A stretch of 64,000 nucleotides of DNA from IMG/VR virus record IMGVR_UViG_3300035211_000050, positions 4,854-68,853 of that record; one strand, given 5' to 3'. Both the position numbers and the translations under genes were made by a program. This stretch comes from a virus. The notes below the pieces were generated by a model. That model ran no database searches and was not told the origin of the DNA. It saw only the letters and a list, made by a program, of their open reading frames with translations. Shown piece by piece: positions 4,125 to 56,660 of this stretch (positions are counted from its first letter, which is position 1; each line of letters starts with the position of its first letter).

Positions 4125-4152
4125 ACTTGCTGTTCATTTTTGAACGGCCATT
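4125..4152. promoter_or_regulatory. 28-bp palindromic site, copy 1 (acttgctgttc attttt gaacggccatt)
   Basis: GTTCA-N4-TGAAC core with conserved flanks, found 5 times in the window. Confidence 0.75.
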
Positions 4153-4169
4153 ATTTAAGGTAATAAATC

Positions 4170-4418
4170 ATGCAAAAAGCAAAAATTGACATTCAGCCTC
4201 AAAATACAAGATCATACACACTGATGGCTTTTCATGCATTAAATGGCCAAACCGGAAGTATTGTAAAAACAAATGAAATTGAAGGACTAAAGACTGAGCG
4301 TGTTCTAATTAAGTTTGATAAACCAATTGATGGCTTCTACAAGCATGGGACAAAACATACTTATTTTTGGTTCAACAAAGAAGATGTCAAAATACTTTCA
4401 GAAAAGGAACCATCATGA
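4170..4418 (+). CDS. hypothetical phage protein
   Basis: ORF with AAGGT RBS. Confidence 0.6.
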   Translation: MQKAKIDIQPQNTRSYTLMAFHALNGQTGSIVKTNEIEGLKTERVLIKFDKPIDGFYKHGTKHTYFWFNKEDVKILSEKEPS

Positions 4419-4600
4419 AAATATTAAAAACCTTATGGATTAAATTCAATTGTTTCATCGGTAATCATGATTGGACTTGCAAAGCTGAACAAGGCATCAA
4501 GCCAACAGAAGAAGAATTGAGAGATCCCATTGCAGGATTTAAACTTTATGCTGGAATGTATTGCAAGCATTGCGGTCGTATTAGCAGATTGTCATTATAA
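4415..4600 (+). CDS. DUF1660-like small Zn-binding phage protein
   Basis: CFIGNHDW...CKHCG pattern; start at the ATG at 4415 after AAGGA. Confidence 0.55.
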   Translation: MKILKTLWIKFNCFIGNHDWTCKAEQGIKPTEEELRDPIAGFKLYAGMYCKHCGRISRLSL

Positions 4601-4620
4601 CAACTTTTAGGAGAATAAAA

Positions 4621-4977
4621 ATGCCAAATCCAACAATAACTTTCAGACTATCTCCAAATCAAATAGCTCGCGGTCTTCAGGTTATTCGTAACCTTGAACC
4701 AAACTATCAACTTACCAGCATTTCAAAAATTGTTAAAACAATTTATCTTGATTATCTGGCAAAGATGACAGTAAACAAAGCGATTAATGTTCCACAAGAA
4801 TATTTGGATGAAGTAAATATCCTGTTAGAAGGGACGCAGAAAAACTCAATAAAGAATTTCGATGCTCTCAAAGAATTTATTCAAACAAAAGAGGAAGAAA
4901 ATGAAGAGATTCAAGAAGAGCCATCTGTAATTAATAGTGTAGAAGATTTCAGTCCACCAAATGATTGGGATATTTAA
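4621..4977 (+). CDS. ribbon-helix-helix-like DNA-binding protein
   Basis: N-terminal ITFRLSP strand plus two helices (SISKIVK); paralog of 6482..6757. Confidence 0.5.
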   Translation: MPNPTITFRLSPNQIARGLQVIRNLEPNYQLTSISKIVKTIYLDYLAKMTVNKAINVPQEYLDEVNILLEGTQKNSIKNFDALKEFIQTKEEENEEIQEEPSVINSVEDFSPPNDWDI

Positions 4978-4992
4978 AAGGAGATATTATAA

Positions 4993-5400
4993 ATGAGAGA
5001 TTTAGCAGAAATCAAAGAAGATATTGAACTTTTACGCAAAGCAGTAAAGAAATGGTCATTAATATCTGTCGGCCTAGGTGAAGATTTGGCATCAAGAAAT
5101 TGTGCCTTATGTCAAGAATATAATCACCTTGGCTGCAGTAAAACATTTGTGCCAATAATTTCATGTCCTATAGCATCTTATACTCATTGTGATTCATACT
5201 CCTTCATGGCTTGTGGATGCACAAATACTCCATGGCAAGACTGGTCAAAGCATCAACTATTTATGCACAATACACATACTAGATATTCCAGAACAGTTAA
5301 ATGTTCCATATGCCGTGAACTTGCCAATAAAGAACTTATGTTCCTTCAAAAGGTATTAGAAATTAATCTAGCAGAATATAAAAAATTAAAAGGAGCATAA
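4993..5400 (+). CDS. Cys-rich hypothetical protein
   Basis: CALC..C..CPI..C..C motifs. Confidence 0.6.
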   Translation: MRDLAEIKEDIELLRKAVKKWSLISVGLGEDLASRNCALCQEYNHLGCSKTFVPIISCPIASYTHCDSYSFMACGCTNTPWQDWSKHQLFMHNTHTRYSRTVKCSICRELANKELMFLQKVLEINLAEYKKLKGA

Positions 5401-5403
5401 TCT

Positions 5404-5676
5404 ATGGATAGAATCAGAGTAAATAACGTCCTCCAAGGAAAAGTTGTCCTCAGAGATAAAAATTATGCCATCAGTTTTGTAACAAACTATGGAGTGGTAA
5501 CAGTTCGCATGTTTGAACTTGATAAGTTTCTTGAACAAAATCCGCACTTAAAACCAATCATGCAAAGCTCTGTAATTGAAGCCGATCAAATCATTGGAAA
5601 ATACATAAATGTCAGGGATAAGGCAGCAAAGTATTTTACAAAAGCTAATGAAGAAATCAGAATCAGGCTTTTCTAA
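5404..5676 (+). CDS. hypothetical phage protein
   Basis: AAGGAG RBS. Confidence 0.65.
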   Translation: MDRIRVNNVLQGKVVLRDKNYAISFVTNYGVVTVRMFELDKFLEQNPHLKPIMQSSVIEADQIIGKYINVRDKAAKYFTKANEEIRIRLF

Positions 5677-5695
5677 TTAATTGAAGGAACTCAAA

Positions 5696-6019
5696 ATGGA
5701 TCTAGAAAAAATAATTAAAGAAGAAGCTCCAAAGGCAGGCACTAATGATAGTCATGATAATGCTTATGCAGAAGCTTTAAGAAATGCTTATATAAAATAT
5801 AAAGATATTTTAACTAAAGAAGAAATAGAATTTCGTTGGAATATAGTCAAAGCTAAATATGATGGAACTCATAAATCAGTTGCAGAAACAATGATCTTAT
5901 ATTATTTATATGATGAAAAATTATTAGAAGAAAAAGAAAAGTTTAATCAAATTATAAATCAAATAACACTTATAGCTTTTATGATTAGTTTAATAATTTG
6001 TATTCTTGTTAAATGCTAA
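5696..6019 (+). CDS. hypothetical protein with C-terminal TM helix
   Basis: ITLIAFMISLIICILV; start at the ATG at 5696. Confidence 0.55.
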   Translation: MDLEKIIKEEAPKAGTNDSHDNAYAEALRNAYIKYKDILTKEEIEFRWNIVKAKYDGTHKSVAETMILYYLYDEKLLEEKEKFNQIINQITLIAFMISLIICILVKC

Positions 6020-6785: not shown

Positions 6786-8840
6786 ATGTTTAGCAAAATG
6801 AAAAAGGAGTTTCAAGTGCATGTAACCACCATGCTAAGAAGCCAGACGCATTTGTTTCTTGTCAATGCTGACAAGGACGAATTATGGAGACTTTACCTTG
6901 AAAGTTTTCCAGAAGACAATAACAGAACTTTTCGTAAGCGCAGGGAACATGACTGCTCTTGCTGCCGACATTTCATTAAGAGATTCGGCAACATTGTGGC
7001 AATCAGAGATGACAAATTTATTTCAATCTGGGATTTTGAGTCTAATCAGGAAGAATACAATCCGTCATTAAAGGCAATGTCAGAATACATTCACAAGTGT
7101 GAAATTACTGAAGTTTTTATAACTTCAAATGGCAATCTTGGCACTGATAAAAATCATGAACAGCTTAATTCATCAGAGATACTCACATGGGAACATTTCC
7201 ATTTCAGACTGCCTGATTCTTTTGTAGTACATGTAAAAGAGGTAGAATTAAACAGATTGCGCGGACAGTTTCGAGATGATAGAAACGTATTTCTGAGAGC
7301 ATTAACAGAAATAACGCCAGAAGCTATTGAAACTGTCTTGGAATTAATTCAGCAAAAAACTCTTTACAAAGGTCAGGAATGGAAAGCGATTCTTTTAAAT
7401 TTGCAAAGGCTTCAAAAAGAATCCAAGACATTTGATAATGTTGGTGTCTGGGCATGGGAAAGAGCCATTGTAGTTGGCCCTGTTGTAAGCAGAATCCGCA
7501 ACCACAGTATTGGAGTACTTCTTCAAGACATTAGTAAAGGAATTGATTTGAATGATGCAGTTTCAAGATATGAAAAGATCGTAGCACCTTCAAATTATAA
7601 AAGACCAAAAGCAATTTTCACTACCAAAATGCTTCAGGATGCTCAAGATAAGATTGTCGAACTTGGTCTTGAAAACAGCCTCGGCAGGCGCTATGCCAAG
7701 ATTGAAGATATCACAGTAAATAATATCCTATTCGGTAACAAGGATACTATAAAAAAGCTTAGCAATTTTGAGCAGGTTTTCGATAATATGGCTAAAGATA
7801 CTCCGACAAAAGTACCAAATCTTGACAGATTATCTATTGTTGAAATTGATGATTTCATTTCTAATATAATGCCAAAATTAACCAATGTTGAAATTCTTAT
7901 GGAAAACAGGCTTGAGCAGAACCTTGTATCTCTAATTGCTCCCATAGATAAGAATGCACCAACACTTTTTAAGTGGGATAATGCATTCTCATGGGCCTAT
8001 AATGGCAACATGACAGACTCAATGAAACAGCGTGTTCAAAAGGCAGGCGGTAACATAAATGGTGTTCTGCGTTTCAGCATTATGTGGAACGAAGCTGGTG
8101 ATAATAACAATGATTTCGATGCTCATGCCGTGGAACCAAAAGGTGATCATATTTTCTTCAAAAATAAGGGAAGAAAACACCCAAGTTCTGGAATGCTAGA
8201 TGTAGATATTACAAGACCATTTGATTTACATCAAGTTCCTGATGGTGGCGCTGCTGTAGAGAATATTGTATGGACAGATAAAAATCATATGCTTGAAGGT
8301 ATTTATCGTTTTTATGTCCATAACTTCAGTCATAACGGAGGAAAAACCGGCTTCAGTGCTGAGATTGAATTTGATGGAACTATTCATAAATTCCATTATA
8401 ACAGAGAATTGCGAAATGATGAAAATATTGCTGTAGCTGAAGTAATTTTACAGGATAACAAATTTACAATAAAGCCAGCATTACCATCAACTACAGCAAG
8501 CAAAAAACTGTGGAACATTTCAACACAGCACTTTCATCCAGTATCCACTATCATGTATAGCCCAAATTACTGGAATGAGCAGAAGGGTATCGGCCACAGG
8601 CACGTATTCTTTATGATTAACGACTGCCTGAATGATTCAAATCCAAATGGATTCTTCAATGAATTTCTCAAAGAAGATTTTATGGAATATAAAAGAGTTT
8701 TTGAAGCTCTAGGAAGTAAAATGCATGTAAAGGAGGATGAGAATCAATTATCTGGACTTGGTTTCAGTACAACTAAGCACGATTATGTAGTTCTTCGTAT
8801 TATTGGAAGTTTTAATCGTGTTATCAAAGTAAATTTTTAA
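6786..8840 (+). CDS. large conserved phage protein (HDCSCC N-terminus; YfaP/DUF2135-like DxDxH...LDVD domain)
   Basis: 684-aa ORF with strong RBS; motifs HDCSCCRHF, DFDAHAVEP, GMLDVD, VENIVW. Confidence 0.6.
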   Translation: MFSKMKKEFQVHVTTMLRSQTHLFLVNADKDELWRLYLESFPEDNNRTFRKRREHDCSCCRHFIKRFGNIVAIRDDKFISIWDFESNQEEYNPSLKAMSEYIHKCEITEVFITSNGNLGTDKNHEQLNSSEILTWEHFHFRLPDSFVVHVKEVELNRLRGQFRDDRNVFLRALTEITPEAIETVLELIQQKTLYKGQEWKAILLNLQRLQKESKTFDNVGVWAWERAIVVGPVVSRIRNHSIGVLLQDISKGIDLNDAVSRYEKIVAPSNYKRPKAIFTTKMLQDAQDKIVELGLENSLGRRYAKIEDITVNNILFGNKDTIKKLSNFEQVFDNMAKDTPTKVPNLDRLSIVEIDDFISNIMPKLTNVEILMENRLEQNLVSLIAPIDKNAPTLFKWDNAFSWAYNGNMTDSMKQRVQKAGGNINGVLRFSIMWNEAGDNNNDFDAHAVEPKGDHIFFKNKGRKHPSSGMLDVDITRPFDLHQVPDGGAAVENIVWTDKNHMLEGIYRFYVHNFSHNGGKTGFSAEIEFDGTIHKFHYNRELRNDENIAVAEVILQDNKFTIKPALPSTTASKKLWNISTQHFHPVSTIMYSPNYWNEQKGIGHRHVFFMINDCLNDSNPNGFFNEFLKEDFMEYKRVFEALGSKMHVKEDENQLSGLGFSTTKHDYVVLRIIGSFNRVIKVNF

Positions 8841-18591: not shown

Positions 18592-19014
18592 ATGGGACTT
18601 ATTCCAAATCTGTCAGATATTCCTGACAAAAAGCCGGTAGAAGCTGGAGAGTATGATCTTAGAATCAGCAAAGCAAAAGAGACAAAATCAACTAAATCTG
18701 GCCGCTATGGTTGTCAGCTGATCATTGCGATTGATGGTGAAGACAATGCTTCTGATATCTTTCACACTCTATGGTATGGTAATTTCAAAGATTATCAAGG
18801 AGATGATCCAGAGAAGAGTAATACAATGTGGCGCATGGTAAAAGACTTTCTTCGCGCTGTCGGACTTGATCCGGAAGAAGAGACTGATGAATCAGATCTT
18901 ATTGGACTGGAATTTACAGCTGAGATAGGTTTTAATGACGGAATGGACACTGATGAAGATGGCAATCCTATCCAAGTTGGGCCACCAAAAAATGAGATCC
19001 TTCGGGTAGTATAG
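18592..19014 (+). CDS. DUF669-like ssDNA-binding protein
   Basis: PVEAGEYDLRI, SKSGRYG, acidic C-terminal part ending KNEILRVV. Confidence 0.7.
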   Translation: MGLIPNLSDIPDKKPVEAGEYDLRISKAKETKSTKSGRYGCQLIIAIDGEDNASDIFHTLWYGNFKDYQGDDPEKSNTMWRMVKDFLRAVGLDPEEETDESDLIGLEFTAEIGFNDGMDTDEDGNPIQVGPPKNEILRVV

Positions 19015-19026: not shown

Positions 19027-19054
19027 ACTGGCTGTTCATTTTTGAACGTCAAGT
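19027..19054. promoter_or_regulatory. 28-bp palindromic site, copy 2 (actggctgttc attttt gaacgtcaagt)
   Basis: Same motif as 4125-4152. Confidence 0.75.
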
Positions 19055-22098: not shown

Positions 22099-22348
22099 CA
22101 ATGAAAATAAAACATTAACTATAGAAGTTCTTCAAGAAGCAATAAAGAAACTTGACCAGACTAAAAGACCTTTCTTTATGTACTCGACATTTTGTCCAAT
22201 AGATAAAGTTATTAAAAGTAAGAAATTAGATCAAGAGGCTGAGAGGTTTATGTCAAGTTTTAATTCAAAATTTCATGAGTTACTTATAATACATCCAAAA
22301 TGGAAAGAATATTTAGAAAAAAGATTTAAAGGATTATATGATGACTAA
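22082..22348 (+). CDS. hypothetical phage protein
   Basis: ORF overlapping its neighbours. Confidence 0.5.
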   Translation: MTSTFSNENKTLTIEVLQEAIKKLDQTKRPFFMYSTFCPIDKVIKSKKLDQEAERFMSSFNSKFHELLIIHPKWKEYLEKRFKGLYDD

Positions 22349-23045
22349 AACATCTTTAGGAAATAGAATGAAAGAAAATTACGAATATAGTTGTCAATCT
22401 AAATTACTTCGACGAGTACCTGTAATTATTCGTTTAGATGGCAAAGCTTTTCATACATTTACAAAAAATTGCATTAAACCTTTTGATGATTTTTTACGTG
22501 AAGCAATGGAACAAACTACCATAAAATTATGTAAAGAAATTCAAGGAGCTAAATGTGGTTATGTACAATCAGATGAAATATCTATTTTATTAACTGATTT
22601 TGATCGACTAAATACCAATGCTTGGTTTGATTATAATATACAAAAAATAGTTTCTATTAGTGCAAGCATGACATCTACAAAATTTAATGCTTTTTATAAT
22701 ACTGGCTCTAATTTAGCTCTCTTTGATTCAAGAGCTTTTAATATACCAAAAGAAGAAACTTGCAACTACTTCATTTGGAGACAGCAAGACTGGATAAGAA
22801 ATTCACTTCAAATGCTTGCAAGAGAATACTATTCTCATAAAGAGTTATACCAGAAAAAGACTTCTGATATTCATGAAATGTTACATGAAAAGAATATAAA
22901 TTGGAATAATATTGCTGATAAATGGAAAAATGGTAGTTTTATTTTTTATCATAATCATGACCTTAAGTGGAAAATTAGACATGATATTATTTTTACTCAA
23001 GATAGATTTAGTATTGAGCAGTTCAATATTCCTATAGAGGATTAA
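22338..23045 (+). CDS. Thg1-like tRNA(His) guanylyltransferase / 3'-5' polymerase
   Basis: IIRLDGKAFHTFT, YVQSDEIS, FDSRAF, YFIWRQQD. Confidence 0.92.
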   Translation: MMTKTSLGNRMKENYEYSCQSKLLRRVPVIIRLDGKAFHTFTKNCIKPFDDFLREAMEQTTIKLCKEIQGAKCGYVQSDEISILLTDFDRLNTNAWFDYNIQKIVSISASMTSTKFNAFYNTGSNLALFDSRAFNIPKEETCNYFIWRQQDWIRNSLQMLAREYYSHKELYQKKTSDIHEMLHEKNINWNNIADKWKNGSFIFYHNHDLKWKIRHDIIFTQDRFSIEQFNIPIED

Positions 23046-23050: not shown

Positions 23051-24034
23051 ATGACTAAAGAAGAGTTGATTCAAAAAATAACTGAAGCAAATATAGCCTA
23101 TTCATCTGGCATTCCATTCATGACGGATTCAGAATATGATGTTTTGTGGCAAGAGCTTTATGTAATAGATCCAACTAATGATCTTTTATATCATACAGCG
23201 AAGAATACATATGCCGGCGGTTCCATGATTAAACATAAGTACCAAGTATTTGGAACTCAAAAAGCATTCAACATGGACGATTTAAAACCATTCTTAATAC
23301 GTTTTGGAGATCAGCCAATTGTTATCGAACCAAAATATGATGGTTGCGCTGCAGTAATGACTCTAACAAAGAATGGCTGGCTTCTAGTCAAGGAAGGTGA
23401 TGGAAAATTTGGTGAAGATATATCTCATTTACTTCCAATAATTAAAGAACCTTTTGAAGTAAGACATTTTCAAACAGTTGAATTATTAATTCCTTGGGAA
23501 GATTGGGATTCATCTTTTGGTGCAAATCCTCGTAATGTAGTAGCAGGCTGGTTAGCCCGTAAATATGAAGCACCACCAATAAAGATTACTTCAGTGCCAC
23601 ATAACTTTGGTCCATTAAGTGAGACTTATAATTACGATGGAGATCTAGATTCATTAAGTGAAAAACTATTAACTCTTTTTGCTGAATGGAATAAGATTTA
23701 TCCAATGGATGGCTTAATGCTAAAACCATTAGACGAGCAAACCAGATTAATCGCTAGCAATAATGGTCAAGTTAATAATTGGTCAATCGCTTGGAAGCCA
23801 CCAATACAAACCAAGTGGACAACTGTAACTGATATTGAATGGAACGTGTCACGTTTAGGCCGAGTTATTCCTACAATAATTTATGACCCTATCGAATTAT
23901 GTGGCACTACAAATAGTCGAGTCACTGGAAATAATGCCTTATGGATAGTTGAAAGGCAAATAAAAATTGGGAGCAAAATCTTAGTTGGTAAAGCAGGAGA
24001 AATTATACCTAAAATTCTTGATGTAAAAAACTAA
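23051..24034 (+). CDS. ligA: NAD-dependent DNA ligase, N-terminal part (Ia, adenylation, OB domains)
   Basis: AYSSG...MTDSEYD, EPKYDG, DGLMLK, IAWK, VSRLGRVIP, KAGEIIP. Confidence 0.88.
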   Translation: MTKEELIQKITEANIAYSSGIPFMTDSEYDVLWQELYVIDPTNDLLYHTAKNTYAGGSMIKHKYQVFGTQKAFNMDDLKPFLIRFGDQPIVIEPKYDGCAAVMTLTKNGWLLVKEGDGKFGEDISHLLPIIKEPFEVRHFQTVELLIPWEDWDSSFGANPRNVVAGWLARKYEAPPIKITSVPHNFGPLSETYNYDGDLDSLSEKLLTLFAEWNKIYPMDGLMLKPLDEQTRLIASNNGQVNNWSIAWKPPIQTKWTTVTDIEWNVSRLGRVIPTIIYDPIELCGTTNSRVTGNNALWIVERQIKIGSKILVGKAGEIIPKILDVKN

Positions 24035-24201
24035 TGGTTTTGAATAACATCAGTTTATATGGATTTTTGGCTTTGCCCGGACGGTTTGTAAAAATCGTTT
24101 TTATGGGGCCTAGCGTGGCCGTGGTTGGACGTAACCGGATTATGCGTGTATCTGTACGGACGTTTTTTTTGACGTCACCACGTCAATATTTTTGAACCAT
24201 T
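24033..24201 (+). other. GC-rich, G/T-skewed structured intergenic element (candidate single-strand origin or RNA)
   Basis: Several hairpins, a GTAA tetraloop, ggcc-TAGCGT-ggcc, enclosing aatggtt/aaccatt. Confidence 0.45.
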
Positions 24202-24213
24202 GAGGAGTAATAA

Positions 24214-24705
24214 ATGTATGATATAAGAAAATTTAAAACATTTTCAATATTTAAAGAAAAATTCTTATCAAAAATACCAAAAGAATATTTTACAAAAGAA
24301 TATGAAGATAAATGTTGGCTTTGGAAAGGTGGAGGACATTCTGCGGGCTATGGTAGAGTTTATTGGGATGATAAAAGATATTTTGCACATCAAATTTCTT
24401 ATATCATTTTTAATGGAATAATTCCAGATGGTAAAGTTATCAGACATACTTGTAATAATCCTATTTGTATAAATCCTAAACATTTAATTTTAGGTTATAA
24501 ATATGAAAACTCTATTGATATGGTTAAAGCAAATAGACAAGCTCATCAAAGGTTAAATGAAGAGGCTGTCAAAGTTATTAAATGGATGTTGAAATATAAA
24601 TATAAAAAAGGATTAGGAAATAAATTAGCAAAGTTATATAACGTAAAACGAAACACTATTTCAAATATTAAAAATAATCATAGTTGGGCATGGCTAAAAG
24701 TATAA
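24214..24705 (+). mobile_element. free-standing HNH homing endonuclease with C-terminal HTH
   Basis: CWLWKG..GYG..AHQISY..IRHTCNNPICINPKHL..EN; GAGGAG RBS. Confidence 0.85.
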
Positions 24706-24721
24706 ATAAAAGGTAATTTAA

Positions 24722-25492
24722 ATGGAAAATTTAACGCCAAAAAATTGTCCAAAATGTAATGAACCTCTTGAATGGGAAGGAGTTCATCTCATATGTCATG
24801 GAGAGAAATGTATTTCTAAAATCATAACATCTATTCATTATTTCTATACTGATAAAGGAATAATGATAGATGGTATAGGACCTATGGTAATTGAAAAGTT
24901 ATTGCAAAATGACAAAATTTATAAAGTTCTTTCAGTTAAACCATGGGCATTACTCGATCCACTTGCTTATAATATCACTATAGAAGCATATAATATATTA
25001 GGAAGAAAGACATATGATCATATAATGGATGGTATTAAGCAAACATATGGAACAAAAACTATGGTAAACTTTATAGCTGGCTTAGGCTTGCCAGGTTTAG
25101 GTTATAAAAATGCTTTACGTCTTTGCCAGTATATTAAGACAGGTAAGTTAAATTATCACGTACCTTTGAAGGCTAGAGAAAGCTTTCTTGAAGCAGTAGT
25201 TGCTTTTAATGATGCATCAGGTGAAATGAAAAATTTCTCTTTCGCTCCAATACCTTCACCTGCTAAAGCCATTTATTGTATTACAGGAACTCTATCAATG
25301 TCACGAAATGAAATGGTAGAATTCTTATCTAAATATGATTATGAGTTTACACCTCACATGAATAAAGAAACAAATTATCTGATCGTTGGTGAAGATCCAG
25401 GTAATATAAAAATAAAGTTTGCAGAGAAATATAATATTCCACAAATAACAGAAGAACAATTTATGAAACTTTTGGACAAGGAAATGAAATGA
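24722..25492 (+). CDS. ligA: NAD-dependent DNA ligase, C-terminal part (Zn finger, HhH, BRCT)
   Basis: CPKC..L..C..C, IDGIG, LGLPGLG, YCITGTLS..R..YLIVGEDPG..K. Confidence 0.85.
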   Translation: MENLTPKNCPKCNEPLEWEGVHLICHGEKCISKIITSIHYFYTDKGIMIDGIGPMVIEKLLQNDKIYKVLSVKPWALLDPLAYNITIEAYNILGRKTYDHIMDGIKQTYGTKTMVNFIAGLGLPGLGYKNALRLCQYIKTGKLNYHVPLKARESFLEAVVAFNDASGEMKNFSFAPIPSPAKAIYCITGTLSMSRNEMVEFLSKYDYEFTPHMNKETNYLIVGEDPGNIKIKFAEKYNIPQITEEQFMKLLDKEMK

Positions 25493-39256: not shown

Positions 39257-42200
39257 TTACTTTTCAATTGAGTTAAAATAATTCTGTCTTAATTGTTTTT
39301 GTCGCTCTTTTAACTGACCAATTCTCTTTCTTACGCTTGTAGTTTGCTTAAGCTTTTCTAACCTATTGATTAATGTAGTTATACTGTTTATAGAACTTGC
39401 AAAACCCTCATAATGTTTCATCTGCCTAAATTCTGTAATGTTATCTTTAATAAAACCTCTCTTGTCTTCTGCTTTATCAAAAGAACTCTTAAATTTTCTA
39501 AACTTCTTTCCGGCATCTTTAAAGTCCTGTTCTTCTATAGATGGCCGATATTCACTTCCTCGCCCAACATGCCAGTAAAGAAGCTTGCCAATAAATGGTA
39601 ATGATTCTAAAAGCCTAGAATTTTCAACATCAAATATCTCACCACTCATTACATCTTTACTTAAGGCATTTACAAATTTAACTGGAGGTAAAATCATCTG
39701 ACTTATAGCTGTACCAATTCCTTCTCTTCTTGCCTGCATTCTGACGAATCTATTTGCGCCTCCCATAGTTAGAAAGTTTTCAATTACATTATCACTAAAC
39801 TTAATATCCTTTCCTAACATAAAGTCTTTTATTTCATCTGCGCCGGCATTAGCTAAAGTAAGCAAACCCATTAATTTAACCATATTGCCCATTGCTCTTA
39901 ACTTCTGATTAGCATTACCTCTCTTAAGATCACGCCAAACTTCATTACGAAATACATCAAATTGTTTTATCGTATATGTTTTTAGCATATACAAAATTCT
40001 CCAATTCCCCCCTTTAAGATAATACTCTGGCATTTCAGAAAGTGCTACTGGCTGGAAATCTAACAATCTTGAATACAATAGCATCTTGACATTCTCTGAA
40101 GGATTATCAGCTAATATATCATTAATAACTTCATTAGATTTACTTCCAAAAAGTGGTCTTATCTTTTTTAATAATTCTGCCCTACCTTCTTCTGAACTGG
40201 CCTGACGTTTGAAAGCATCAAAAGCATTATTAATCAGAACCTCTTTACCAATAGAATCAATTTTTTCAAGCCCTGTATATTTGAACACTTTAGAAACTAG
40301 ATTACTTAAAGAATCAAAGTCAGCAAATTCTTGTGCCATTCTTTCAATACCTAAATCCTCTTTAGTAATTTTTGAATTCTTAAATATTGCATTCGTTAAA
40401 TTTTTTACATTGCTTGGTAAATTTCTAGGGTCAAAAATATTCCCTACATACATAGCCCAGGCAAGATCACCTACCTGAGTTACAGCAGCTACTGGATTAC
40501 CCATAACATCAATATAAGCAATATTCTTATACGCATGAACAATCCCAGTTGTGCCTCTCTCATGAAATCTAGATTCAAGAATATCACGAACTGCCTGCTC
40601 ATCTTTCTTATGTAACTTTCCATCAAGCATCAAATCATTAATATATACACCAATATTTTCTGTATAATCTCTTTGGTTCTTATACTTCTCAATGGCAGCA
40701 TCATAATCTCTGATGTTCTCTTCAAGTAAATCCATTCTAGCTATATGAGCATCAGCCAATGCTTGCTGTGCCTCATCTAAAATTGGTTCACTATTTTCAA
40801 AACCAGACAGCTTTTCAAGCTTAATTAATTCCGTTTGTGCTAATGATCTTTTTTGTTTTAATCGAGAAATTCGTTCAGGAACTTTACCAAAGAATCTTCG
40901 AGCTTCTATCTTCTTAGTCATTGAATAAAGATATTGCATTAAAGCAGCATCAGAATCCATATAAAACTTTGCATATTCTTCTGGAATAGTCTCAAATACT
41001 CTACTCTGAATATTGCCAGGCCCAGCAATTCCTTTATACGTACCAAGAATAATATTACTAATAATATCTGCACGAACATCTGGATATCTATAATTAAACT
41101 CAGATACAGTTATTCCAAGCTTATCTGCTTTAGCTTTAATAGCTTCTGTAAAGACAGGCCGCTTAGAAATCTCTTGAGTTGCTTGCAAGAAGCCTTCCTG
41201 ATCTTTTAGAATACGAGGCCAATAGTCTTCAATAAAACCTACATCAAGACCAACATCAATGGCATCCTGCCTGATTTGATTTAAGACTTCTCGTGTTTTA
41301 TTATAAGAATCTAAGATATCATACTTTTCAGCAAGTTGAGTAATCTTTCCTAAATCAGAATTCTTACGTGCCCAATCCCAGGCAGACTTATCTTCTATTG
41401 ACATTTCCTTTTTAGCTTTTTTCATCATTGGATATGCATTATTCAAGGCACTAGTAATTTTCATACTTGTGACAAAATCCAATTTACGAAGCTTATTAGA
41501 TATGTCTTCTAAACCAATATTTTTAAGTCTAGTAGATACAGGCGTAAGACTTTTGTCAGTCATTAATTTCATATCAGATAATTTCATTCGTAATGACTGA
41601 CCAATCTTTTTTAAGATATTTGATTTCTGTTGATAGATTTCATTATACTGTTCATCTGAAAGTTTCTGTTCAGGCAGAGGCTCACGAGTTTCAAACATCG
41701 GAAGATTAGATTGCTCTTCAATGCCTGATTCTCTTTCAAATATTTTTCCACTCTCAGCTTCTCTAGCCAAGCCAGTCGCAGTCTGAGCTTCTGGATTACC
41801 AGTAAGAAATCTCTTACCTGTTAAGTAAAGTTGGTTAAAGAAGTCCATGATTTTTTGAATCATTTTATTAAAAGTAGAATTGTTACGATAAGATTCTCTA
41901 TCTTTCATTATTCGAGCAAACATCTTTGCACGATTTTCACGCATTGCCTGAATAGAATCTTTGTGCTTACTTGGAGTAAATCCTAACTTGCCGGCCTTTC
42001 TTAATTTATTAAACTCTCTATTCAGTGCGGCATCATCCTCTTTTGTAATCATTCCAAGATTATCAAGCACATGTTTATTTTCATGCCAGAGAGTTTCATT
42101 GTCTGCAAAATTGGCATCGAGCATAATATTAGATCCTATTGTAACTCCTAGAATCTTTCCATCTTCTGACATCTCGCCTGATTGGATGGCCATTTCAATA

Positions 42201-42850
42201 AAATCATTTCCGGCATCTTTAATATTTTGAATGGTAAGTCCGCTACCATTTTTGAATCTCACAGCTATTGTATTGTCACTATCAATAAAAACATTCTGAT
42301 TAGGAAACATCTTTTTAATTTCGTTAATATCTAATCCTTGATCAGGCGCTTGATTTTCACGAATTTCCATATTAAATCTTTCAGGATTTTCCTTAGCTTC
42401 AATAACTTCACGCATAAATTGAGCTTGAGTAGTAACTTCTTGAAACTGATCCATTAACTCAAACTTTTTAGCTTTATCAGATTCTTCTGAAGCTTGACTA
42501 TAAATAGTATCTGCTTCTTGTAATAATTGATCTCTACGATTTTGAACTTCTTCAAGCTGTTCAGGAGTAGCAATCTTTGAAAATTCTACAGCATCAACAG
42601 TATTTTTAAGTTCAGGAATATTTATTTCTTCAACAATCTCTTCTGGAATAACTGCGCCAGCTTCTGTAGCTTTATTAATTATATCTTGCTGTTCTTCTAA
42701 TAAAGAATTAAAATGTCCATCAACTGCAAAGACTTCTGCCTGATGTCCACTATAACCATTATCATTAAGTTCTTTAAGTAAGGCTTTAATAGCAACATTA
42801 TCTGCTGGATCAATTTTGTGTAGTCTCAAACAATTTGCAAGAGGTTTCAT
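39257..42850 (-). CDS. large polyvalent internal virion/ejection protein with zincin-like (HExxH) domain
   Basis: 1197 aa; ETLWHENKH; helical C-terminal domain (DYWPR, DFQP, LKTY). Confidence 0.7.
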   Translation of the reverse strand: MKPLANCLRLHKIDPADNVAIKALLKELNDNGYSGHQAEVFAVDGHFNSLLEEQQDIINKATEAGAVIPEEIVEEINIPELKNTVDAVEFSKIATPEQLEEVQNRRDQLLQEADTIYSQASEESDKAKKFELMDQFQEVTTQAQFMREVIEAKENPERFNMEIRENQAPDQGLDINEIKKMFPNQNVFIDSDNTIAVRFKNGSGLTIQNIKDAGNDFIEMAIQSGEMSEDGKILGVTIGSNIMLDANFADNETLWHENKHVLDNLGMITKEDDAALNREFNKLRKAGKLGFTPSKHKDSIQAMRENRAKMFARIMKDRESYRNNSTFNKMIQKIMDFFNQLYLTGKRFLTGNPEAQTATGLAREAESGKIFERESGIEEQSNLPMFETREPLPEQKLSDEQYNEIYQQKSNILKKIGQSLRMKLSDMKLMTDKSLTPVSTRLKNIGLEDISNKLRKLDFVTSMKITSALNNAYPMMKKAKKEMSIEDKSAWDWARKNSDLGKITQLAEKYDILDSYNKTREVLNQIRQDAIDVGLDVGFIEDYWPRILKDQEGFLQATQEISKRPVFTEAIKAKADKLGITVSEFNYRYPDVRADIISNIILGTYKGIAGPGNIQSRVFETIPEEYAKFYMDSDAALMQYLYSMTKKIEARRFFGKVPERISRLKQKRSLAQTELIKLEKLSGFENSEPILDEAQQALADAHIARMDLLEENIRDYDAAIEKYKNQRDYTENIGVYINDLMLDGKLHKKDEQAVRDILESRFHERGTTGIVHAYKNIAYIDVMGNPVAAVTQVGDLAWAMYVGNIFDPRNLPSNVKNLTNAIFKNSKITKEDLGIERMAQEFADFDSLSNLVSKVFKYTGLEKIDSIGKEVLINNAFDAFKRQASSEEGRAELLKKIRPLFGSKSNEVINDILADNPSENVKMLLYSRLLDFQPVALSEMPEYYLKGGNWRILYMLKTYTIKQFDVFRNEVWRDLKRGNANQKLRAMGNMVKLMGLLTLANAGADEIKDFMLGKDIKFSDNVIENFLTMGGANRFVRMQARREGIGTAISQMILPPVKFVNALSKDVMSGEIFDVENSRLLESLPFIGKLLYWHVGRGSEYRPSIEEQDFKDAGKKFRKFKSSFDKAEDKRGFIKDNITEFRQMKHYEGFASSINSITTLINRLEKLKQTTSVRKRIGQLKERQKQLRQNYFNSIEK

Positions 42851-45800: not shown

Positions 45801-48350
45801 TTATCCTGCTAAACAATCTAAAAGTTTTCCAATGGTTTCTTGCTGTTCAGCATTTTCCATATAAGCTTCATAGGCATCAATTTCAATTTCCTCTATGCCT
45901 TCTTTGGTAGATACTGATACAGGCATCTTAATAGTAACTCCTTTAAGAGCTTCTAATTGTTTAGGTGAAAAAGAAATAGTATTTGGTGCATTTACTTCAG
46001 GCTTAGGCTTTAAATAAGGTTTATCTGATTTAAAATCAGTTCCTACATCAATGCCAAGAGTATTTTTAACATAGGCTGCTCTGGAGCGAATAAAAGCTTC
46101 TTCTCCAGGCCCGCCTTTTAAATTGTCTGGAACAGTCATTAATATCTCAGCTTTACGTTCAGGAGATATCTTCTTAGTTTTTACAAGTTCATTCTTATCT
46201 TTTATTCCATACTCTTTGTAAAGTTCATTAATAACCTCAGACTGCTTGGCAATAGTTTCTTTATTTAAATCAATTGTTTTTTCTTCAACAGGAGTTTCTT
46301 TTACTTCTGTTTGTTTAAGTTCAATATTACCAACAAGATGGCCTTTTGAATCATACCAATTATCACCATATTTTAGAAAGAATTTTCCGTCTTCTGATTC
46401 AAAAACATTCTCTTCATTTGGAACTTGTTTAACAGTAATCTTTTTTGCCTTTGTATACAATGGCTTTTTAGTTCTTTTATCATCACCAAGCCAATCTTTA
46501 AACTCTTCTTGATTCATCTCAGTAACAGAACCAAAGCCTTGCCAGCCATCATCATAATTTTCCATATAAATATTTTTAGCTTCTTCTGCAGACTCGGCAC
46601 CCATAACTACTTTATGTTCATCAAATTTTCCTGTCTTAGGATTTACTTGATCAACAATATAGATACGAGGACTTGTAGTTGTGCCTGGCTTAATGAATAC
46701 ATCAATCTGATCTCCGTCTCTTCCTTCAGTGTTAGAGAAATATCCATAATGATCATTCATCTTACTTTCCCATTTCTCACCGTCAGAGTCAACTCCAGAT
46801 CTTGTAGAGCCAGCAGGATTTTCAATCTTAATATTAAAATCATCTACCTTAACAGATGCCTTCTTATAATTTCCAGCTTCCTTTTGAGCTTCACTTGGGT
46901 TCAGATTAACATCAGCCTTTTTTACTTGAGAATCAATATCTTGATTAGTCTCTTCACCTACTTGCTGTTCATCTGTGAACGAACTTGTCAAGCGCTCTTT
47001 CAATTTTGAATAAGCATCAATCTTTGTTTGGACTCCTTTGATAACATCATCCACAGGTATATTTTCTTCTACAGCCATTGCTGCTAAAGAGTCTTGATTA
47101 TTCAAAAGATTATTATGGTCTGTAATTTTTTGATCTATCTTATTCATAGAAGCCTGAACAACTTCAGGTCCATTAGAGATAATATTCTTAGCTTGAGCTT
47201 CTATTGGATCATCAGGTGTTGAAGAACTACTTTCTCTTGATAAAATAACATTAGCACCTGCGCCGGCACTACCACCAACAGCGCCTGCAGACATGCTTTC
47301 AACTATTCTTTCAACATTTTCTACAGTCAATAATTCTTCATCAGTATTGGCCACAGTATTTAGAATACTAAGAAGTTCCTGACCACCTTCTTGCAAAGCT
47401 TCTTCAGGGATATTTTGTAATAGTTCTTTTGCTGATTTCTTAGCAAGTCCTTTTGCACCCTTAGTTAAGGAATCAATAAAAGTACTAACTAATCTGCTAT
47501 TACCACCAAGAAACTCTAAAGAAGTTGCCAAAGAGCCAAAGAATAATGCAGTTTCTGGAGCATCAATACCTTTCTCTACAAATAAGTCTGCATACATGCC
47601 ACCAGATTCCATTGGCAATACAGCTGCTGCAATACCAGCTTTAGAGCCTAATTTCTTCAGCGCTTGTTTGGTAACTTGTCTTCTCAGTTCCTTTTCTGTA
47701 ATTCCTTTAATTCCTTTTTTAAGACCTTCCTTAACCAGCTTGTCGATACTTTTCTTTAGTACAGTACGGCCGGCAAGACCTCCAATACCACCAGCTACAG
47801 TTCCAGGACCTGGGGCAGCTGCTGAACCTACTGCTGCACCGGCGACTGCACCAAGAGCAGCTTCAACCATACTCGGAACAAGCTCACCTAAAGTTCCTTG
47901 TGCCCAATCAATTGTATCACCAATACCTGCTTTACCAGTGTAAATATCTTTAAAAGAAACTTTCTTAGGATACTTTTCAGCCTCTTCAATATTTCTTTTA
48001 TAGCCTTTAATACCATGAGTTTGAAGAACCTCTCCAAGAGAATCAAGACCAACTTTTTTAAGTCCACTACCTGCTAATGCCTCAGCACCATATGCAGTTG
48101 CCTGTAAGTTTTGCAGACCTCGCTTAACGCCAGGCATAAAATCTGAATCCGTTGTAGGAACTTTATCTGCTGCACTAACTTCACGTGCTTTCCTACTTAA
48201 AGAAAGAAGTTCATCTTTTGTATGAATATGTCGATTTGGTTCACTATGAGCTATTTTGATCCCTTCAAATAATTCTTCCTTTTCCTCATCTGAAGAGGTA
48301 CTATCAAAATAACTTTTATATTGTTGTCGTGCTTGTTCTGTAAGAGCCAT
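45801..48350 (-). CDS. polyvalent internal virion protein with InPase-like domain
   Basis: Gly/Ala hydrophobic hairpin; AGNYKK..IENPAGS.RSG..W...HYGY..TEG.DGD.IDVF..FDEHK. Confidence 0.75.
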   Translation of the reverse strand: MALTEQARQQYKSYFDSTSSDEEKEELFEGIKIAHSEPNRHIHTKDELLSLSRKAREVSAADKVPTTDSDFMPGVKRGLQNLQATAYGAEALAGSGLKKVGLDSLGEVLQTHGIKGYKRNIEEAEKYPKKVSFKDIYTGKAGIGDTIDWAQGTLGELVPSMVEAALGAVAGAAVGSAAAPGPGTVAGGIGGLAGRTVLKKSIDKLVKEGLKKGIKGITEKELRRQVTKQALKKLGSKAGIAAAVLPMESGGMYADLFVEKGIDAPETALFFGSLATSLEFLGGNSRLVSTFIDSLTKGAKGLAKKSAKELLQNIPEEALQEGGQELLSILNTVANTDEELLTVENVERIVESMSAGAVGGSAGAGANVILSRESSSSTPDDPIEAQAKNIISNGPEVVQASMNKIDQKITDHNNLLNNQDSLAAMAVEENIPVDDVIKGVQTKIDAYSKLKERLTSSFTDEQQVGEETNQDIDSQVKKADVNLNPSEAQKEAGNYKKASVKVDDFNIKIENPAGSTRSGVDSDGEKWESKMNDHYGYFSNTEGRDGDQIDVFIKPGTTTSPRIYIVDQVNPKTGKFDEHKVVMGAESAEEAKNIYMENYDDGWQGFGSVTEMNQEEFKDWLGDDKRTKKPLYTKAKKITVKQVPNEENVFESEDGKFFLKYGDNWYDSKGHLVGNIELKQTEVKETPVEEKTIDLNKETIAKQSEVINELYKEYGIKDKNELVKTKKISPERKAEILMTVPDNLKGGPGEEAFIRSRAAYVKNTLGIDVGTDFKSDKPYLKPKPEVNAPNTISFSPKQLEALKGVTIKMPVSVSTKEGIEEIEIDAYEAYMENAEQQETIGKLLDCLAG
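46960..46987. promoter_or_regulatory. 28-bp palindromic site, copy 4, intragenic (acttgctgttc atctgt gaacgaacttg)
   Basis: Left arm identical to copy 1. Confidence 0.65.
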
Positions 48351-54788: not shown

Positions 54789-55096
54789 TATAAATCATCT
54801 CCTGTAATTGGTGTTGTAATAAAATACCCATCTGTTGGTTCTGTAGGAGTCGCTGTAAGTTCCAAAGTTTCTGAATCTACAGAAGAAACAAAATTTAGAG
54901 ATTCCTCTTTTCGTAAAACAGGCACAGACTGCTTTTCTCCAAGAGGTTTAGGAGGTTTGAAATGTTCATGTTTAGGTTCCCAACAAGTATCTGCACAGAC
55001 AAGGAAATTATCCCATGTCATTCTGCACTCAGAGGCTAATCTTTTGAACCCACACCTGTCACAAATAACAAAATAATCTCCAGGAACGTAAGTCAT
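54788..55096 (-). CDS. conserved Cys-containing head-region protein
   Basis: ICDRCGFK...WDNFLVC..CWEPKH. Confidence 0.65.
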   Translation of the reverse strand: MTYVPGDYFVICDRCGFKRLASECRMTWDNFLVCADTCWEPKHEHFKPPKPLGEKQSVPVLRKEESLNFVSSVDSETLELTATPTEPTDGYFITTPITGDDL

Positions 55097-55110
55097 TATA
55101 GACCTCTAAC

Positions 55111-55491
55111 TTATTTAGAAAGTTCTAAAATAATACTATAAGAATCACCAGAAGAATGTCCTACTGTAGTAAACAATAGATCTCCTGTAACACCAGTACC
55201 AGCATTATTTACAATTCCTCCAAAAGAAGTAAAGTCAAGACAACCAACTTGATCAGCGCCAAGAGCAAAAGCAAGTACATTAGCTGTGGCATCCCATAAC
55301 ATTTGTACTGCCATACCATTTGTTGCATACCAGATTTTAGTAATTTTGACTTTGGTAGGAGTATTAACAAGAGCACTTACATCTACTTTAACAACAGCGC
55401 TCTCACCAGTACCATCTGAAATGTTGGTAAGTTTTATGATTGTTTTCTTTGATCCATCAAACAGAGTTTGAGAAGTGACTGCATCAGACAT
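55111..55491 (-). CDS. conserved virion structural protein
   Basis: SDGTGESAVVKVDVSAL...GVTGDLLFTT. Confidence 0.65.
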   Translation of the reverse strand: MSDAVTSQTLFDGSKKTIIKLTNISDGTGESAVVKVDVSALVNTPTKVKITKIWYATNGMAVQMLWDATANVLAFALGADQVGCLDFTSFGGIVNNAGTGVTGDLLFTTVGHSSGDSYSIILELSK

Positions 55492-55518
55492 GATATTACT
55501 CCTTGATAATGGTAGTTA

Positions 55519-55548
55519 AATGGTCCCTACAAGATTGCAAGGACCATT
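55519..55548 (-). terminator. hairpin downstream of the 329-aa gene
   Basis: aatggtcc...ggaccatt. Confidence 0.5.
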
Positions 55549-55572
55549 AGAATAATCAGCAAGTTCAAATTA

Positions 55573-56562
55573 TCATGAACCATCAACTGCTACAGCAAGA
55601 CCAGTAGTCGGATCAGCAGGAACAGATCCACCAACAACATATACACCACTGCTGGCTGTTGCAAGAGCACTGATATCAAGATAAGCTGGATCAATAACAA
55701 GGATCTTGCCTTCTGTCTGTGCGGCATCTAATGAGATCGCTACTGCAGGATCAGCTGAGGCAAGAATGGCATTCATAAAGAGAGGCTTTCTGAGAATCAT
55801 TCTACGCTCAACATCTGTTGCAGTTGTGCTATGAATGCAAGAAGTAGCATTTGTAGCAGCTTTGGTAAGAAATTCACAATTATTAAACTCTACATCGCGG
55901 GCAGCTTTTCCGGTAATTGTTTCTCTGGTCAACAATACACAAGGCCTGGATTTACTTGATCCACCTTTTTCATTAACCAGGTCACCAAAAACACAGAAAT
56001 TGTACTGAGAGCTGTCACCATTACAAAGAAGTTCAGCAGCTAAATCATCTGTAAGATCAGTTGATTTGAAGATCTCACAGAAGTTCATTACAGTGTACTC
56101 ACCACCATCAGCAAAGGCATAAATGCCTTCTGCGACTGTATTGGCATTGATAACTTTTATATTGCTAAAGCTGTTGCGAACTCCGGTATTGAGAATCGTT
56201 GCAATGTTGGAAGAGCCGGAAGATAATGTAGAACTGATCTTCGCATTCTGCCCAAACATTCTTCCACCAGGATCATAACCAAATATATGCATGCGGTTTT
56301 TATCTACTGTCAGCATCTCTGTCAATACATGAGTGCTGTTGCCCATTAGAGCAATTCCTTGATTTTTGTTTGAAGTAATCTTTGACTCCGCATAAGCAAT
56401 GGTTTTCCATGGACGATTGACAGCATTAGATTTCACACCAACACCATCACTACCATTACCATAATCCACGAAGAAACATTCCGTAATTCCTTGAGGAAAT
56501 CCATTAATCATTGGAATACCATCCCATGTTGGTATCCCTTTTCCAAAATTAAATCTTCCCAT
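55573..56562 (-). CDS. beta-helix (pectate-lyase-like) head fibre/decoration protein
   Basis: FFVD..NGSD...PWKTI..A start; directly after the capsid gene. Confidence 0.6.
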   Translation of the reverse strand: MGRFNFGKGIPTWDGIPMINGFPQGITECFFVDYGNGSDGVGVKSNAVNRPWKTIAYAESKITSNKNQGIALMGNSTHVLTEMLTVDKNRMHIFGYDPGGRMFGQNAKISSTLSSGSSNIATILNTGVRNSFSNIKVINANTVAEGIYAFADGGEYTVMNFCEIFKSTDLTDDLAAELLCNGDSSQYNFCVFGDLVNEKGGSSKSRPCVLLTRETITGKAARDVEFNNCEFLTKAATNATSCIHSTTATDVERRMILRKPLFMNAILASADPAVAISLDAAQTEGKILVIDPAYLDISALATASSGVYVVGGSVPADPTTGLAVAVDGS

Positions 56563-56583
56563 AGTAATCTACTCCTTTTAGAG

Positions 56584-56612
56584 TGGCTACCCCTACCAAT
56601 TAGAGGTAGCCA
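56584..56612 (-). terminator. hairpin downstream of the major capsid gene
   Basis: tggctacc...ggtagcca. Confidence 0.55.
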
Positions 56613-56632
56613 GATTAGTTATTAAAATAAAT

Positions 56633-56660
56633 ACTTGCCGTTCACAAATGAACAACAATT
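56633..56660. promoter_or_regulatory. 28-bp palindromic site, copy 5 (acttgccgttc acaaat gaacaacaatt)
   Basis: Same motif, immediately after the capsid stop codon. Confidence 0.72.

Follow-up and report, generated by a model that had tools for sequence, protein, structure and literature searches.

Dispersed palindromes of a lytic-type phage family as predicted binding sites of a dimeric protein, with a ParB-methyltransferase fusion as the best candidate reader

The parS site is a 16-bp palindrome with TGTT...AACA ends that is read by a ParB-type helix-turn-helix (HTH) dimer, and one of the B. subtilis parS sites is located within spo0J. The canonical ParB motifs for cytidine triphosphate (CTP) are GERRxR (box II) and ENLQR (box III). 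Another ParB-family protein, KorB, is a CTP-dependent clamp and global regulator with 12 OB operators on plasmid RK2. For the Cluster O mycobacteriophages (Corndog and its relatives), 17-bp dyad repeats of the form TGTTCGG-NNN-CCGAACA were described in the available part of PMC4351075, with 34 copies in Corndog, invariant arms and a centre of TTT or AAA in 29 of the 34; about one third of the repeats were intragenic, no orientation bias was found, most were not at promoters, and a dimeric binder was predicted by the authors. According to the same part of that source, the phage, which is lytic, codes for a ParB-like protein and lacks a parAB system, and the function of the repeats was listed as unknown (PMC4351075). 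Only genome notes were found when the literature was searched for follow-up of the Cluster O repeats. Fusions of the ParB-CTPase fold with an N6/N4 methyltransferase were reported to occur frequently in phages, with an enrichment in prophages, and roles in anti-defence or phage-host interactions were suggested only (available text of PMC12704722), and a ParB-like activator of a phage thymine dioxygenase was described in the accessible part of PMC13229309. No literature linking ParB-methylase fusions with dispersed sites was found. Here the palindrome GTTCA-N4-TGAAC was analysed in a window of 64,000 nucleotides (nt) of virus DNA, namely bases 4854-68853 of the 68,853-bp record IMGVR_UViG_3300035211_000050, which has a 127-bp terminal repeat and is called G000 as a whole genome; the 17-bp repeat of Cluster O is the closest case known to have been described. 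The site set is real and is found family-wide, and from sequence it is predicted to operate at the DNA level and to be bound by a protein.

The five cores reported in the initial annotation were all recovered, at 4132, 19034, 35455, 46967 and 56640, and their over-representation was confirmed: 100 shuffles that preserved the dinucleotide composition contained 0.02 matches on average and never as many as 5. Nothing was added by a one-mismatch scan of the window (5 matches, all perfect, against 2.5 expected), and isolated half-sites were not unusual (132 against 141 expected). The core-to-core gaps in the window were 14.9, 16.4, 11.5 and 9.7 kb, respectively. The whole record contains 7 cores, the other two being located upstream of the window at genome positions 1149 and 2871, within a gene-poor region that separates the divergent early and late arms. 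Four of the window sites are intergenic and start 5-21 nt past a stop codon, and the fifth lies within a coding sequence, just as first described. Site 1 (4125-4152, core 4132-4145, GTTCATTTTTGAAC) is found 21 nt past the stop of the open reading frame (ORF) 3763-4110 and 24 nt ahead of the ORF 4170-4418, and its counterpart in the relative G001 is at 45352 in an equivalent neighbourhood. Site 2 (19027-19054, core 19034-19047) follows the stop of the 140-aa DUF669-like gene (18592-19014) by 19 nt, a position kept in G001 (36496) and in the phage genome G021 (44105). Site 3 (35448-35475, core 35455-35468) overlaps the stop of the 260-aa exonuclease gene (34667-35449), and this position is also kept in G001 (25235) and G021 (9614). 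Site 4 (46960-46987, core 46967-46980) is intragenic in the coding sequence of an 849-aa virion protein (45801-48350, minus strand). Site 5 (56633-56660, core 56640-56653) is located 9 nt past the stop of the major capsid gene (56663-57583, minus strand) and 77 nt ahead of the ORF 55573-56562 (minus strand). The earlier statement that the sites do not behave as promoter operators was borne out, as the distance to the next gene varies, the orientation is free and some copies are intragenic. A sigma-70 promoter scan around site 5 showed no signal, with 14 promoter-like sites where 11.5 were expected. In the gene-poor inter-arm region itself (genome 1-3290, and 50000-51900 in G001), a conserved early gene for an acidic protein of 136 aa is flanked by two of the seven sites, and about 870 nt are free of any ORF longer than 50 aa.

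The palindrome was then sought in related genomes, and all 18 of the larger relatives searched carried 5-8 copies each, against 0-1 for a reversed control pattern. G001, with a capsid protein 88% identical and a 329-aa capsid-adjacent protein 53% identical to those of G000, has 7 sites, each in a gene neighbourhood that matches one G000 site. A search with the capsid protein gave 80 loci, 76 of them with enough downstream sequence, and a site was present within 130 nt past the capsid gene in 71 of these 76 (62 with a 4-nt and 9 with a 5-nt spacer, N4 and N5, respectively). The motif was absent from capsid relatives at 50-56% identity (DSL-LC04 and Alcaligenes QDWS535), each of which had one chance-level GTTCA-N3-TGAAC. 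A scan of viral contigs for ACTTG-NN-GTTCA-N4-TGAAC returned at least 120 stretches; 77 new loci were scored among the matches listed, 25 of which share a gene with G000 by tblastn (L182 shares ThyX only), and the other 52 of these listed loci have a single copy each, at chance level. The record of L182, an otherwise unrelated 56-kb phage (G020) without the ParB-methyltransferase gene, contains two GTTCAATATTGAAC copies at 52573 and 52816, 243 bp apart, which probably form a local operator pair.

The in-gene site was found within the homologous giant virion gene (907-2633 aa) in 12 of the 13 genomes examined, and in this AT-rich genome it is encoded with the minority Phe codon TTC (169 of 692 Phe codons) and with third-position G (12% of third positions). 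All 7 sites of G018, the in-gene copy included, have the 5-nt spacer, the reading frame being kept by a one-base shift of GTTCA, and the N5 spacer was also seen throughout G019 (6 of 6) and G022 (4 of 4). These comparisons show that the sites are under selection at the DNA level and independently of gene context. G021 (45 kb) has in common with G000 only the early/replication module (ligase, p69, a basic 95-aa protein, the ParB-methyltransferase at about 50% identity, an 84-aa protein, PolA, primase-helicase, exonuclease, PD-(D/E)XK nuclease, AAA_24 and DUF669) together with TerS, p136 and p129, and no homologue of the G000 structural genes was detected in it by tblastn (E 1e-4). It nevertheless has 8 sites in the form GTTCAA-N3-TTGAAC; the foreign structural arm contains three, and three are intragenic. 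Since the motif survives this swap of the structural module, the reader would be encoded in the shared early/replication module and the sites would have been created anew, and such re-creation suggests that in lytic phages they serve the genome as a whole (its organisation, marking or replication) rather than ordinary promoter control. When genomes were treated as circles and compared with random placement, the sites of 7 out of 10 proved more regularly spaced (P = 0.003 for G021, 0.004 for G015, 0.007 for G002, 0.042 for G005, 0.048 for G000, 0.058 for G001 and 0.084 for G010), with no significant evenness in G006, G011 and G013.

For the analysis of site anatomy, 53 intergenic N4 sites from 13 genomes were oriented by local transcription; the sequences are related and the counts are therefore not independent. 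The resulting logo was mirror-symmetric, A-M-T-K-G-c-Y / GTTCA-Y-W-W-R-TGAAC / R-g-C-M-A-K-T, so that the flank consensus proposed at first stood as a base preference and did not stand as an invariant sequence. Watson-Crick pairing between mirror positions was no higher than the independence expectation at 7 of the 8 position pairs (18/26.4, 11/14.9, 24/23.9, 16/16.5, 25/28.2, 14/17.3 and 20/23.1, observed/expected of 53) and slightly exceeded it at the eighth (18 against 14.8 of 53). The real flanks folded no better than chimeric ones composed of unrelated left and right flanks (-3.1 against -4.2 kcal/mol), the antisense strand folded slightly better than the sense strand, and the foldable stem was limited at many sites to the 5-bp AU-rich core. 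The central dinucleotide was AA or TT at 35 of the 53 sites, with a strand-symmetric preference. The two half-sites thus make up a palindrome of about 16 bp, as in parS, in the form of an invariant inverted repeat with symmetric flanks. By the weight of evidence, the palindromes would be double-stranded DNA sites for a symmetric dimer rather than an RNA hairpin or terminator, because the flank preferences are symmetric, the flanks do not covary, the centre is AA/TT and one-mismatch copies are lacking.

The leading candidate for the binder is a 471-aa fusion of a ParB N-domain and HTH with an N6/N4 DNA methyltransferase (27214-28629, plus strand), designated ParB-MTase below. Its annotated identity was confirmed as a ParB N-domain, an HTH and a beta-class N6/N4 methyltransferase: PHROG matches were to ParB-like and DNA methyltransferase families, the Pfam match was to N6_N4_Mtase (60 bits), with the C half being a DPPY beta-class amino-methyltransferase, and residues 17-208 matched Noc in the PDB (7ng0/7nfu) by phmmer with E values of about 4e-5 to 8e-5. 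In a Foldseek search with a low-confidence model, the N half matched ParB, PadC, Noc and KorB (8qa8/8qa9 among the matches) and the C half matched MboIIA, M.BceJIV and RsrI. A ParB-family HTH protein is therefore encoded on the same replicon as the sites, and the orthologues in G021 and in the Desulfofustis phage described below pass Pfam ParB_N. Persistence of the motif in relatives without ParB-MTase, which had been set down at the outset as speaking against the proposal, was not found: the gene was present in 17 of the 20 records searched, and the three without it were two incomplete contigs ending ahead of the region and one unrelated phage. The variable linker of the ParB-MTase gene itself contains a site in five records of the G021 clade, which also speaks for this protein as the reader. 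An alignment query with ParB-MTase in viral contigs yielded, besides one distant match, L295 (36% identity over about 100 residues), 42 members of the family with identities of at least 61%, and tblastn against named phages gave remote ParB-domain matches only, with the exception of the Desulfofustis phage.

One tie between the protein and the site comes from the HTH. The sequence GGLSTDL is paired with GTTCA in 15 proteins from both clades, despite overall identity of about 50% (the 16th row of the comparison, G010, is blank in the regions shown). Desulfofustis phage LS06-2018-MD01 (L431, OP947158.1), which was retrieved by protein similarity alone and has a primase 37% identical, encodes a ParB-MTase with ParB_N, a weak HTH_ParB and N6_N4_Mtase, in which the HTH reads SSISRDL. 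Its own palindrome is the 29-bp TTGCTAT-GTCCCAA-N-TTGGGAC-ATAGCAA, with 6 exact copies against 0.004 expected and 3 further copies with one mismatch; the copies, unannotated in the record, are at 249, 2251, 7688, 15474, 23059, 29970, 37113, 41281 and 42977, with gaps of about 7 kb across the main body and about 2 kb by the early control region. An IMG/VR relative of this phage (G023, ParB-MTase 46% identical) has 11 copies of TTGAATAAA-N-TTTATTCAA and the HTH GSVHQDL. The outer arms TTGCT/AGCAA are common to the G000 family and the Desulfofustis phage. The HTH is invariant with the GTTCA half-site and different where the half-site differs, which favours ParB-MTase, the best candidate, as the reader. 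In a table of 16 genomes, where a dispersed 5+5 palindrome was counted if -log10 P exceeded 11 (shuffles gave at most 7), a strongly over-represented palindrome was recorded in 6 of 10 ParB_N-positive and in 0 of 6 ParB_N-negative genomes. Four copies of GCCGCTTGTATCTGATAC with an identical asymmetric left flank were also noted in EBPR podovirus 3 (JF412296.1; L460-L461) at 9408, 13823, 29060 and 38979, and these look more like a phage promoter or a direct repeat than a dyad site.

Our tentative reading, to which we give somewhat less than even confidence, is that the sites are recognition sites of a dimeric phage protein, read most likely by the HTH of ParB-MTase in the manner of parS or KorB operators. 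A symmetric, dimeric, phage-encoded protein would recognise palindromes kept at roughly even intervals across the genomes of a phage superfamily, with each ParB-type HTH reading one half-site Y-GTTCA-Y-W in the frame of the 16-bp TGTT...AACA parS and contacting the outer arms TTGCT/AGCAA more weakly. Loading or recruitment onto phage DNA would take place at these sites, 5-15 kb apart, and the protein with its tethered methylase would thereby act on the phage genome rather than on host DNA. The fuller proposal, that the ParB-fold methyltransferase enters at parS-like sites that are specific to the phage and evenly spaced, spreads or slides from them, and methylates or otherwise marks or organises the genome of its own phage rather than host DNA, appears more doubtful. 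The identity of the binder, the nucleotide-dependent spreading and the role of the methylase are parts that we infer. From the interpretation given in the initial annotation, the view of the palindromes as DNA sites of a protein dimer and the domain composition assigned to ParB-MTase stood, and ParB-MTase as the binder is retained as a candidate.

Several observations weigh against ParB-MTase as the reader, or against its action as a CTP-dependent clamp. The 16-genome contrast is biased, as several of the positives were found through their own palindromes; in the subset retrieved by protein similarity only, it amounts to 3 of 7 against 0 of 6 (Fisher one-sided, about 0.12), and four ParB_N-positive phages have no clear palindrome. 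One of the 3 positives in that subset is Vibrio phage 1.213.O (MG592583.1; L465-L467), which encodes a ParB/sulfiredoxin-methylase and has ten dispersed copies of TGTGA-N6-TCACA against 0.047 expected, a sequence that equals the CRP-site consensus and looks like a host site. Residues that separate the N4 from the N5 lineages amount to about 0.5-1.9% of columns in every protein, so no signal was obtained there. The co-occurrence of the motif with ParB-MTase holds but is weak and cannot single out this protein, since its gene is part of the family core, as are those for p69, the basic 95-aa protein, the Cys-rich 84-aa protein, the primase-helicase, TerS, p136 and p129, all of which co-occur with the motif equally well. 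The structure model of ParB-MTase is poor (mean predicted local distance difference test score of 51), and the fold matches were used for domain identity only. The protein of the window misses Pfam ParB_N even at E 0.1 and has a degenerate box II (DGLRR) and box III (SNMDR), with DGLHR in most of its clade; the G021-clade proteins and L312 keep the canonical AGERR and EN..RKD. CTP binding is therefore doubtful for this very phage. As for a ParA-type partner, PF13614 (AAA_31), the single ParA-type family searched, had 0 matches in the genome, and 14 of 14 control genomes scored. Compared with parS, the inner 6 bp differ, the conserved span is 28 bp and so longer than 16, and the spacer of 4 or 5 nt is unusual for a rigid dimer.

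The rival that survives best, although we consider it unlikely, is an operator network of another phage regulator (p69, a 118-aa protein resembling ribbon-helix-helix (RHH) repressors, the Cys-rich 84-aa protein, the basic 95-aa protein or p136), which would mark off the early, middle and late units of transcription by repression, roadblock or activation. The genes for p69 (25724-25933, plus strand) and the very basic 95-aa protein (25950-26237, plus strand) are always linked upstream of ParB-MTase, and that for the Cys-rich 84-aa protein (28951-29205, plus strand) is located between ParB-MTase and PolA and is conserved in the G000 and G021 clades; all three are tightly linked to the conserved block in both clades and are possible partners of ParB-MTase or rival binders. 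p69 is possibly an RHH protein as judged by eye, and the 118-aa and 91-aa proteins open with a strand-helix pattern (ITFRLSP...) typical of RHH repressors, again read by eye, with the 118-aa gene being two genes downstream of site 1. Most sites are at junctions of gene blocks and two are in the divergent early/late control region, and the site can be read as 7+7+(0/1)+7+7 bp, omega-type heptad operators being known. Against an operator network, the distance to the start codon (16 to more than 400 nt) and the orientation are not fixed, no conserved promoter element is found at a constant offset, and several sites are well within genes. The reading strand of an RHH protein should be conserved with its site, and the putative DNA-reading strand of p69, assigned by sequence reading only, varies (KITARID, KATAWID, KVTANVD, KATVDVE and NAAFRVE) with an invariant GTTCA. 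Furthermore, G021 gave no match to the 118-aa protein, and in the Desulfofustis phage neither this protein nor, with a family hidden Markov model, the 84-aa protein was detected; the candidate proteins match no Pfam or PHROG family.

Clearly less probable is the use of the sites as replication origins or helicase-loading sites, several per genome and evenly spaced, read by the DUF3987 primase-helicase (420 aa, 32860-34122, plus strand; Pfam DUF3987, 54-85% identity) like the iterons of P4 alpha. The primase-helicase is present in every palindrome-bearing lineage, and the even spacing and the independence from gene context would suit such a role. The half-site TGTTCAC/T resembles the P4 type I iteron, although no paper pairing that iteron with P4 was found in the literature search. 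However, six phages with a homologous primase and no ParB_N protein show no dispersed palindrome. P4 alpha reads DNA via its C-terminal part, and the C-terminal third of the primase-helicase is its least conserved part. We also know of no multi-origin design with 7-11 identical origins for phages of this size.

A similarly small chance is given to a host protein (LexA-like or another global regulator) exploited by the phage. GTTC/GAAC half-sites are typical of LexA boxes in several phyla, and the CRP-like copies in Vibrio phage 1.213.O indicate that phages can accumulate sites for host factors. Nevertheless, the motif is identical across phages of 31-44% G+C, it changes in step with the phage ParB-HTH in the Desulfofustis phage and G023, and it is lacking in phages with related capsid genes but another replication module. 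In addition, GTTC...GAAC with a 6-bp gap differs from the Gram-positive box GAAC-N4-GTTC.

A hairpin of RNA or single-stranded DNA, placed after genes to terminate transcription (intrinsically or with a factor), to stabilise mRNA 3' ends or to direct processing, is a little less probable still, and is kept as a minor rival because of the terminator-like post-capsid site in this genome and the spacer length of 4 or 5 nt. Most intergenic sites start 5-33 nt past stop codons, the post-capsid site of the window can form 10 pairs (G-U included) followed by a T-rich tail, and a 4- or 5-nt spacer is compatible with a loop. In several relatives, a second small hairpin separates the outer arm CAAGTA from the rest of the post-DUF669-like site. 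These points are opposed by the flank covariation and folding results given above and by intragenic copies on either strand; besides, an invariant stem with a variable loop is the opposite of usual targets of RNA-binding proteins. T-rich tails were seen at some sites only, so that a U-tract is not consistent across sites as a terminator would have it, and Rfam and tRNA scans gave nothing at the sites. The displaced arms were observed at G006 24029, G010 4010, G015 37650, G005 37240, G014 29972 and G012 22658, where the right arm CAAGTA is shifted by about 20 nt and the conserved insert is GAACCTGTTGAATGGTTCG, which can form the small hairpin. A second conserved element is found about 10-60 nt past the post-capsid palindrome in many relatives (L035, L037, L045, L058 and others), consisting of ACTAATTTTAATACTGG followed by a G+C-rich hairpin; its equivalent in the window (56560-56630, minus strand) is AATAACTAATCTGG followed by a GGCTACC...GGTAGCC hairpin just ahead of an AGGAG ribosome site, and this element may be a real terminator or leader structure. 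Finally, the reading of the 28-bp site as an 11-6-11 core site for a dif-like tyrosine recombinase is close to refuted, as PF00589 (Phage_integrase) had 0 matches in the whole phage genome, with all control genomes scoring, which extends the earlier remark that no recombinase is in the window, and as at least 7 copies per genome and intragenic copies are unfit for a resolution site.

The genome is of the lytic type by gene content. The early/replication genes on the plus strand encode a UvrD-like helicase, a PD-(D/E)XK nuclease, an AAA_24 ATPase, the DUF669-like protein, an NAD ligase, ParB-MTase, PolA with a UDG-like N-domain, the DUF3987 primase-helicase, the exonuclease and ThyX, and the structural genes on the minus strand encode terminase, portal, the 306-aa Mu-gpT-like capsid protein and large virion proteins. 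In a megablast search among named phages, no match was found for 10 kb of window sequence. The 684-aa protein (6786-8840, plus strand) matches PHROG 1735 (function unknown) end to end and has relatives of about 50% identity in 555 records of named phages, among them those of Salmonella, Klebsiella, Bacillus, Serratia, Caulobacter and Dickeya, a host range reminiscent of that of the thymidine-hypermodification enzymes. A homologue was detected by tblastn in only 1 of 12 fetched relatives (G005), and the gene thus looks like a transferred accessory gene. The 235-aa protein (22338-23045, plus strand) has a Thg1 (tRNA-His guanylyltransferase) domain with a Pfam E value of 1e-27, and no tRNA gene was found by a tRNA scan of the window. 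The NAD-dependent ligase (23051-25492, plus strand) is split into an adenylation and OB part (23051-24034) and a BRCT part (24722-25492) with ORFs of 53 aa and 163 aa in between, and it is a single gene in G001 (625 aa) and G021 (583 aa); the 163-aa ORF looks like a mobile insert, since its homologue is found among the structural genes of G018. PolA (29782-32319, plus strand) has an N-terminal domain of the uracil-DNA-glycosylase superfamily (Pfam UDG, residues 35-186), and its orthologue in G001 is 1178 aa long against 845 aa here, perhaps through an insertion or intein. An InPase (PF18823) domain is present in the 849-aa virion protein whose gene carries site 4; in relatives, the counterpart of this protein is part of one giant gene of 2000-2600 aa that also covers the 1197-aa ORF (39257-42850), and in this genome five smaller ORFs are located between the 849-aa and 1197-aa parts.

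If the fuller proposal of entry, spreading and methylation by ParB-MTase is true, a self-addressed DNA-modification system built on the ParB switch would be represented here, the same logic would explain the 17-bp repeats of the Cluster O mycobacteriophages, and the widespread phage ParB-methylase fusions would acquire a cognate site and a mechanism. By comparative evidence, one ParB-methylase fusion is tied to a defined set of sites; for fusions of this class, no target is named in the available part of PMC12704722. Three natural specificity variants, each with its own predicted recognition helix, were obtained, namely GTTCA-N4/5-TGAAC, GTCCCAA-N-TTGGGAC and TTGAATAAA-N-TTTATTCAA, and the question can thus be tested directly, using short oligonucleotides and proteins of the uncultured phages made by recombinant expression. 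Even with another binder, the finding would be that of an evenly spread, context-independent site set re-created in a swapped-in structural module.

The likeness to parS and to the nucleoid-occlusion protein sites (Noc) lies in the 16-bp TGTT...AACA frame, in the alignment of ParB-MTase to Noc and ParB over the N-domain and HTH, and in the G021-clade site within the parB-like gene, which recalls the B. subtilis parS in spo0J. Beyond the sequence differences already given, the sites here are genome-wide and not clustered, the C-terminal dimerisation domain is replaced by a methyltransferase, ParA was not found in the search for PF13614 only, and boxes II and III are degenerate in the protein of this phage. 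With KorB and its OB operators, dispersed palindromes at varied promoter distances and a ParB-family reader acting at a distance are shared; KorB differs in being a repressor that works with KorA and has no enzyme fusion, its OB operator is 13 bp, and it belongs to a plasmid and not to a lytic phage. The fusions of PMC12704722 have the same domain composition as ParB-MTase, with no cognate DNA site or loading mechanism named in the text available. The stoperators of Cluster A mycobacteriophages are likewise present in many dispersed copies, bound by a phage protein and often off promoters, but they are asymmetric, oriented with transcription and found in temperate phages with a repressor, and the sites here are symmetric and orientation-free (PMC4351075, available part). 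Corndog, in which 33 copies of TGTTC-N7-GAACA were counted in this work, differs from the present family in copy number (33-34 in 70 kb against 5-11 here), in repeats that are denser at one genome end against an even spread here (as far as described in PMC4351075), in the lack of outer arms on its 17-bp repeats, in a ParB-like protein (gp90, Pfam ParB_N 27.7 bits) that has no methylase fusion and no BLASTP similarity to ParB-MTase, and in its unrelated phage type, a siphovirus of Actinobacteria. The likeness to Cluster O is nevertheless the closest one: invariant arms enclose a variable, A/T-rich centre (TTT/AAA in 29 of 34 there, AA/TT in 35 of 53 here), the copies are dispersed, partly intragenic and orientation-free, both phages encode a ParB-like protein, so that the present sites share the features by which the Cluster O repeats are described in the available text (PMC4351075), and TGTTC-N7-GAACA is the exact frame of the N5 lineages here (GTTCAA-N3-TTGAAC).

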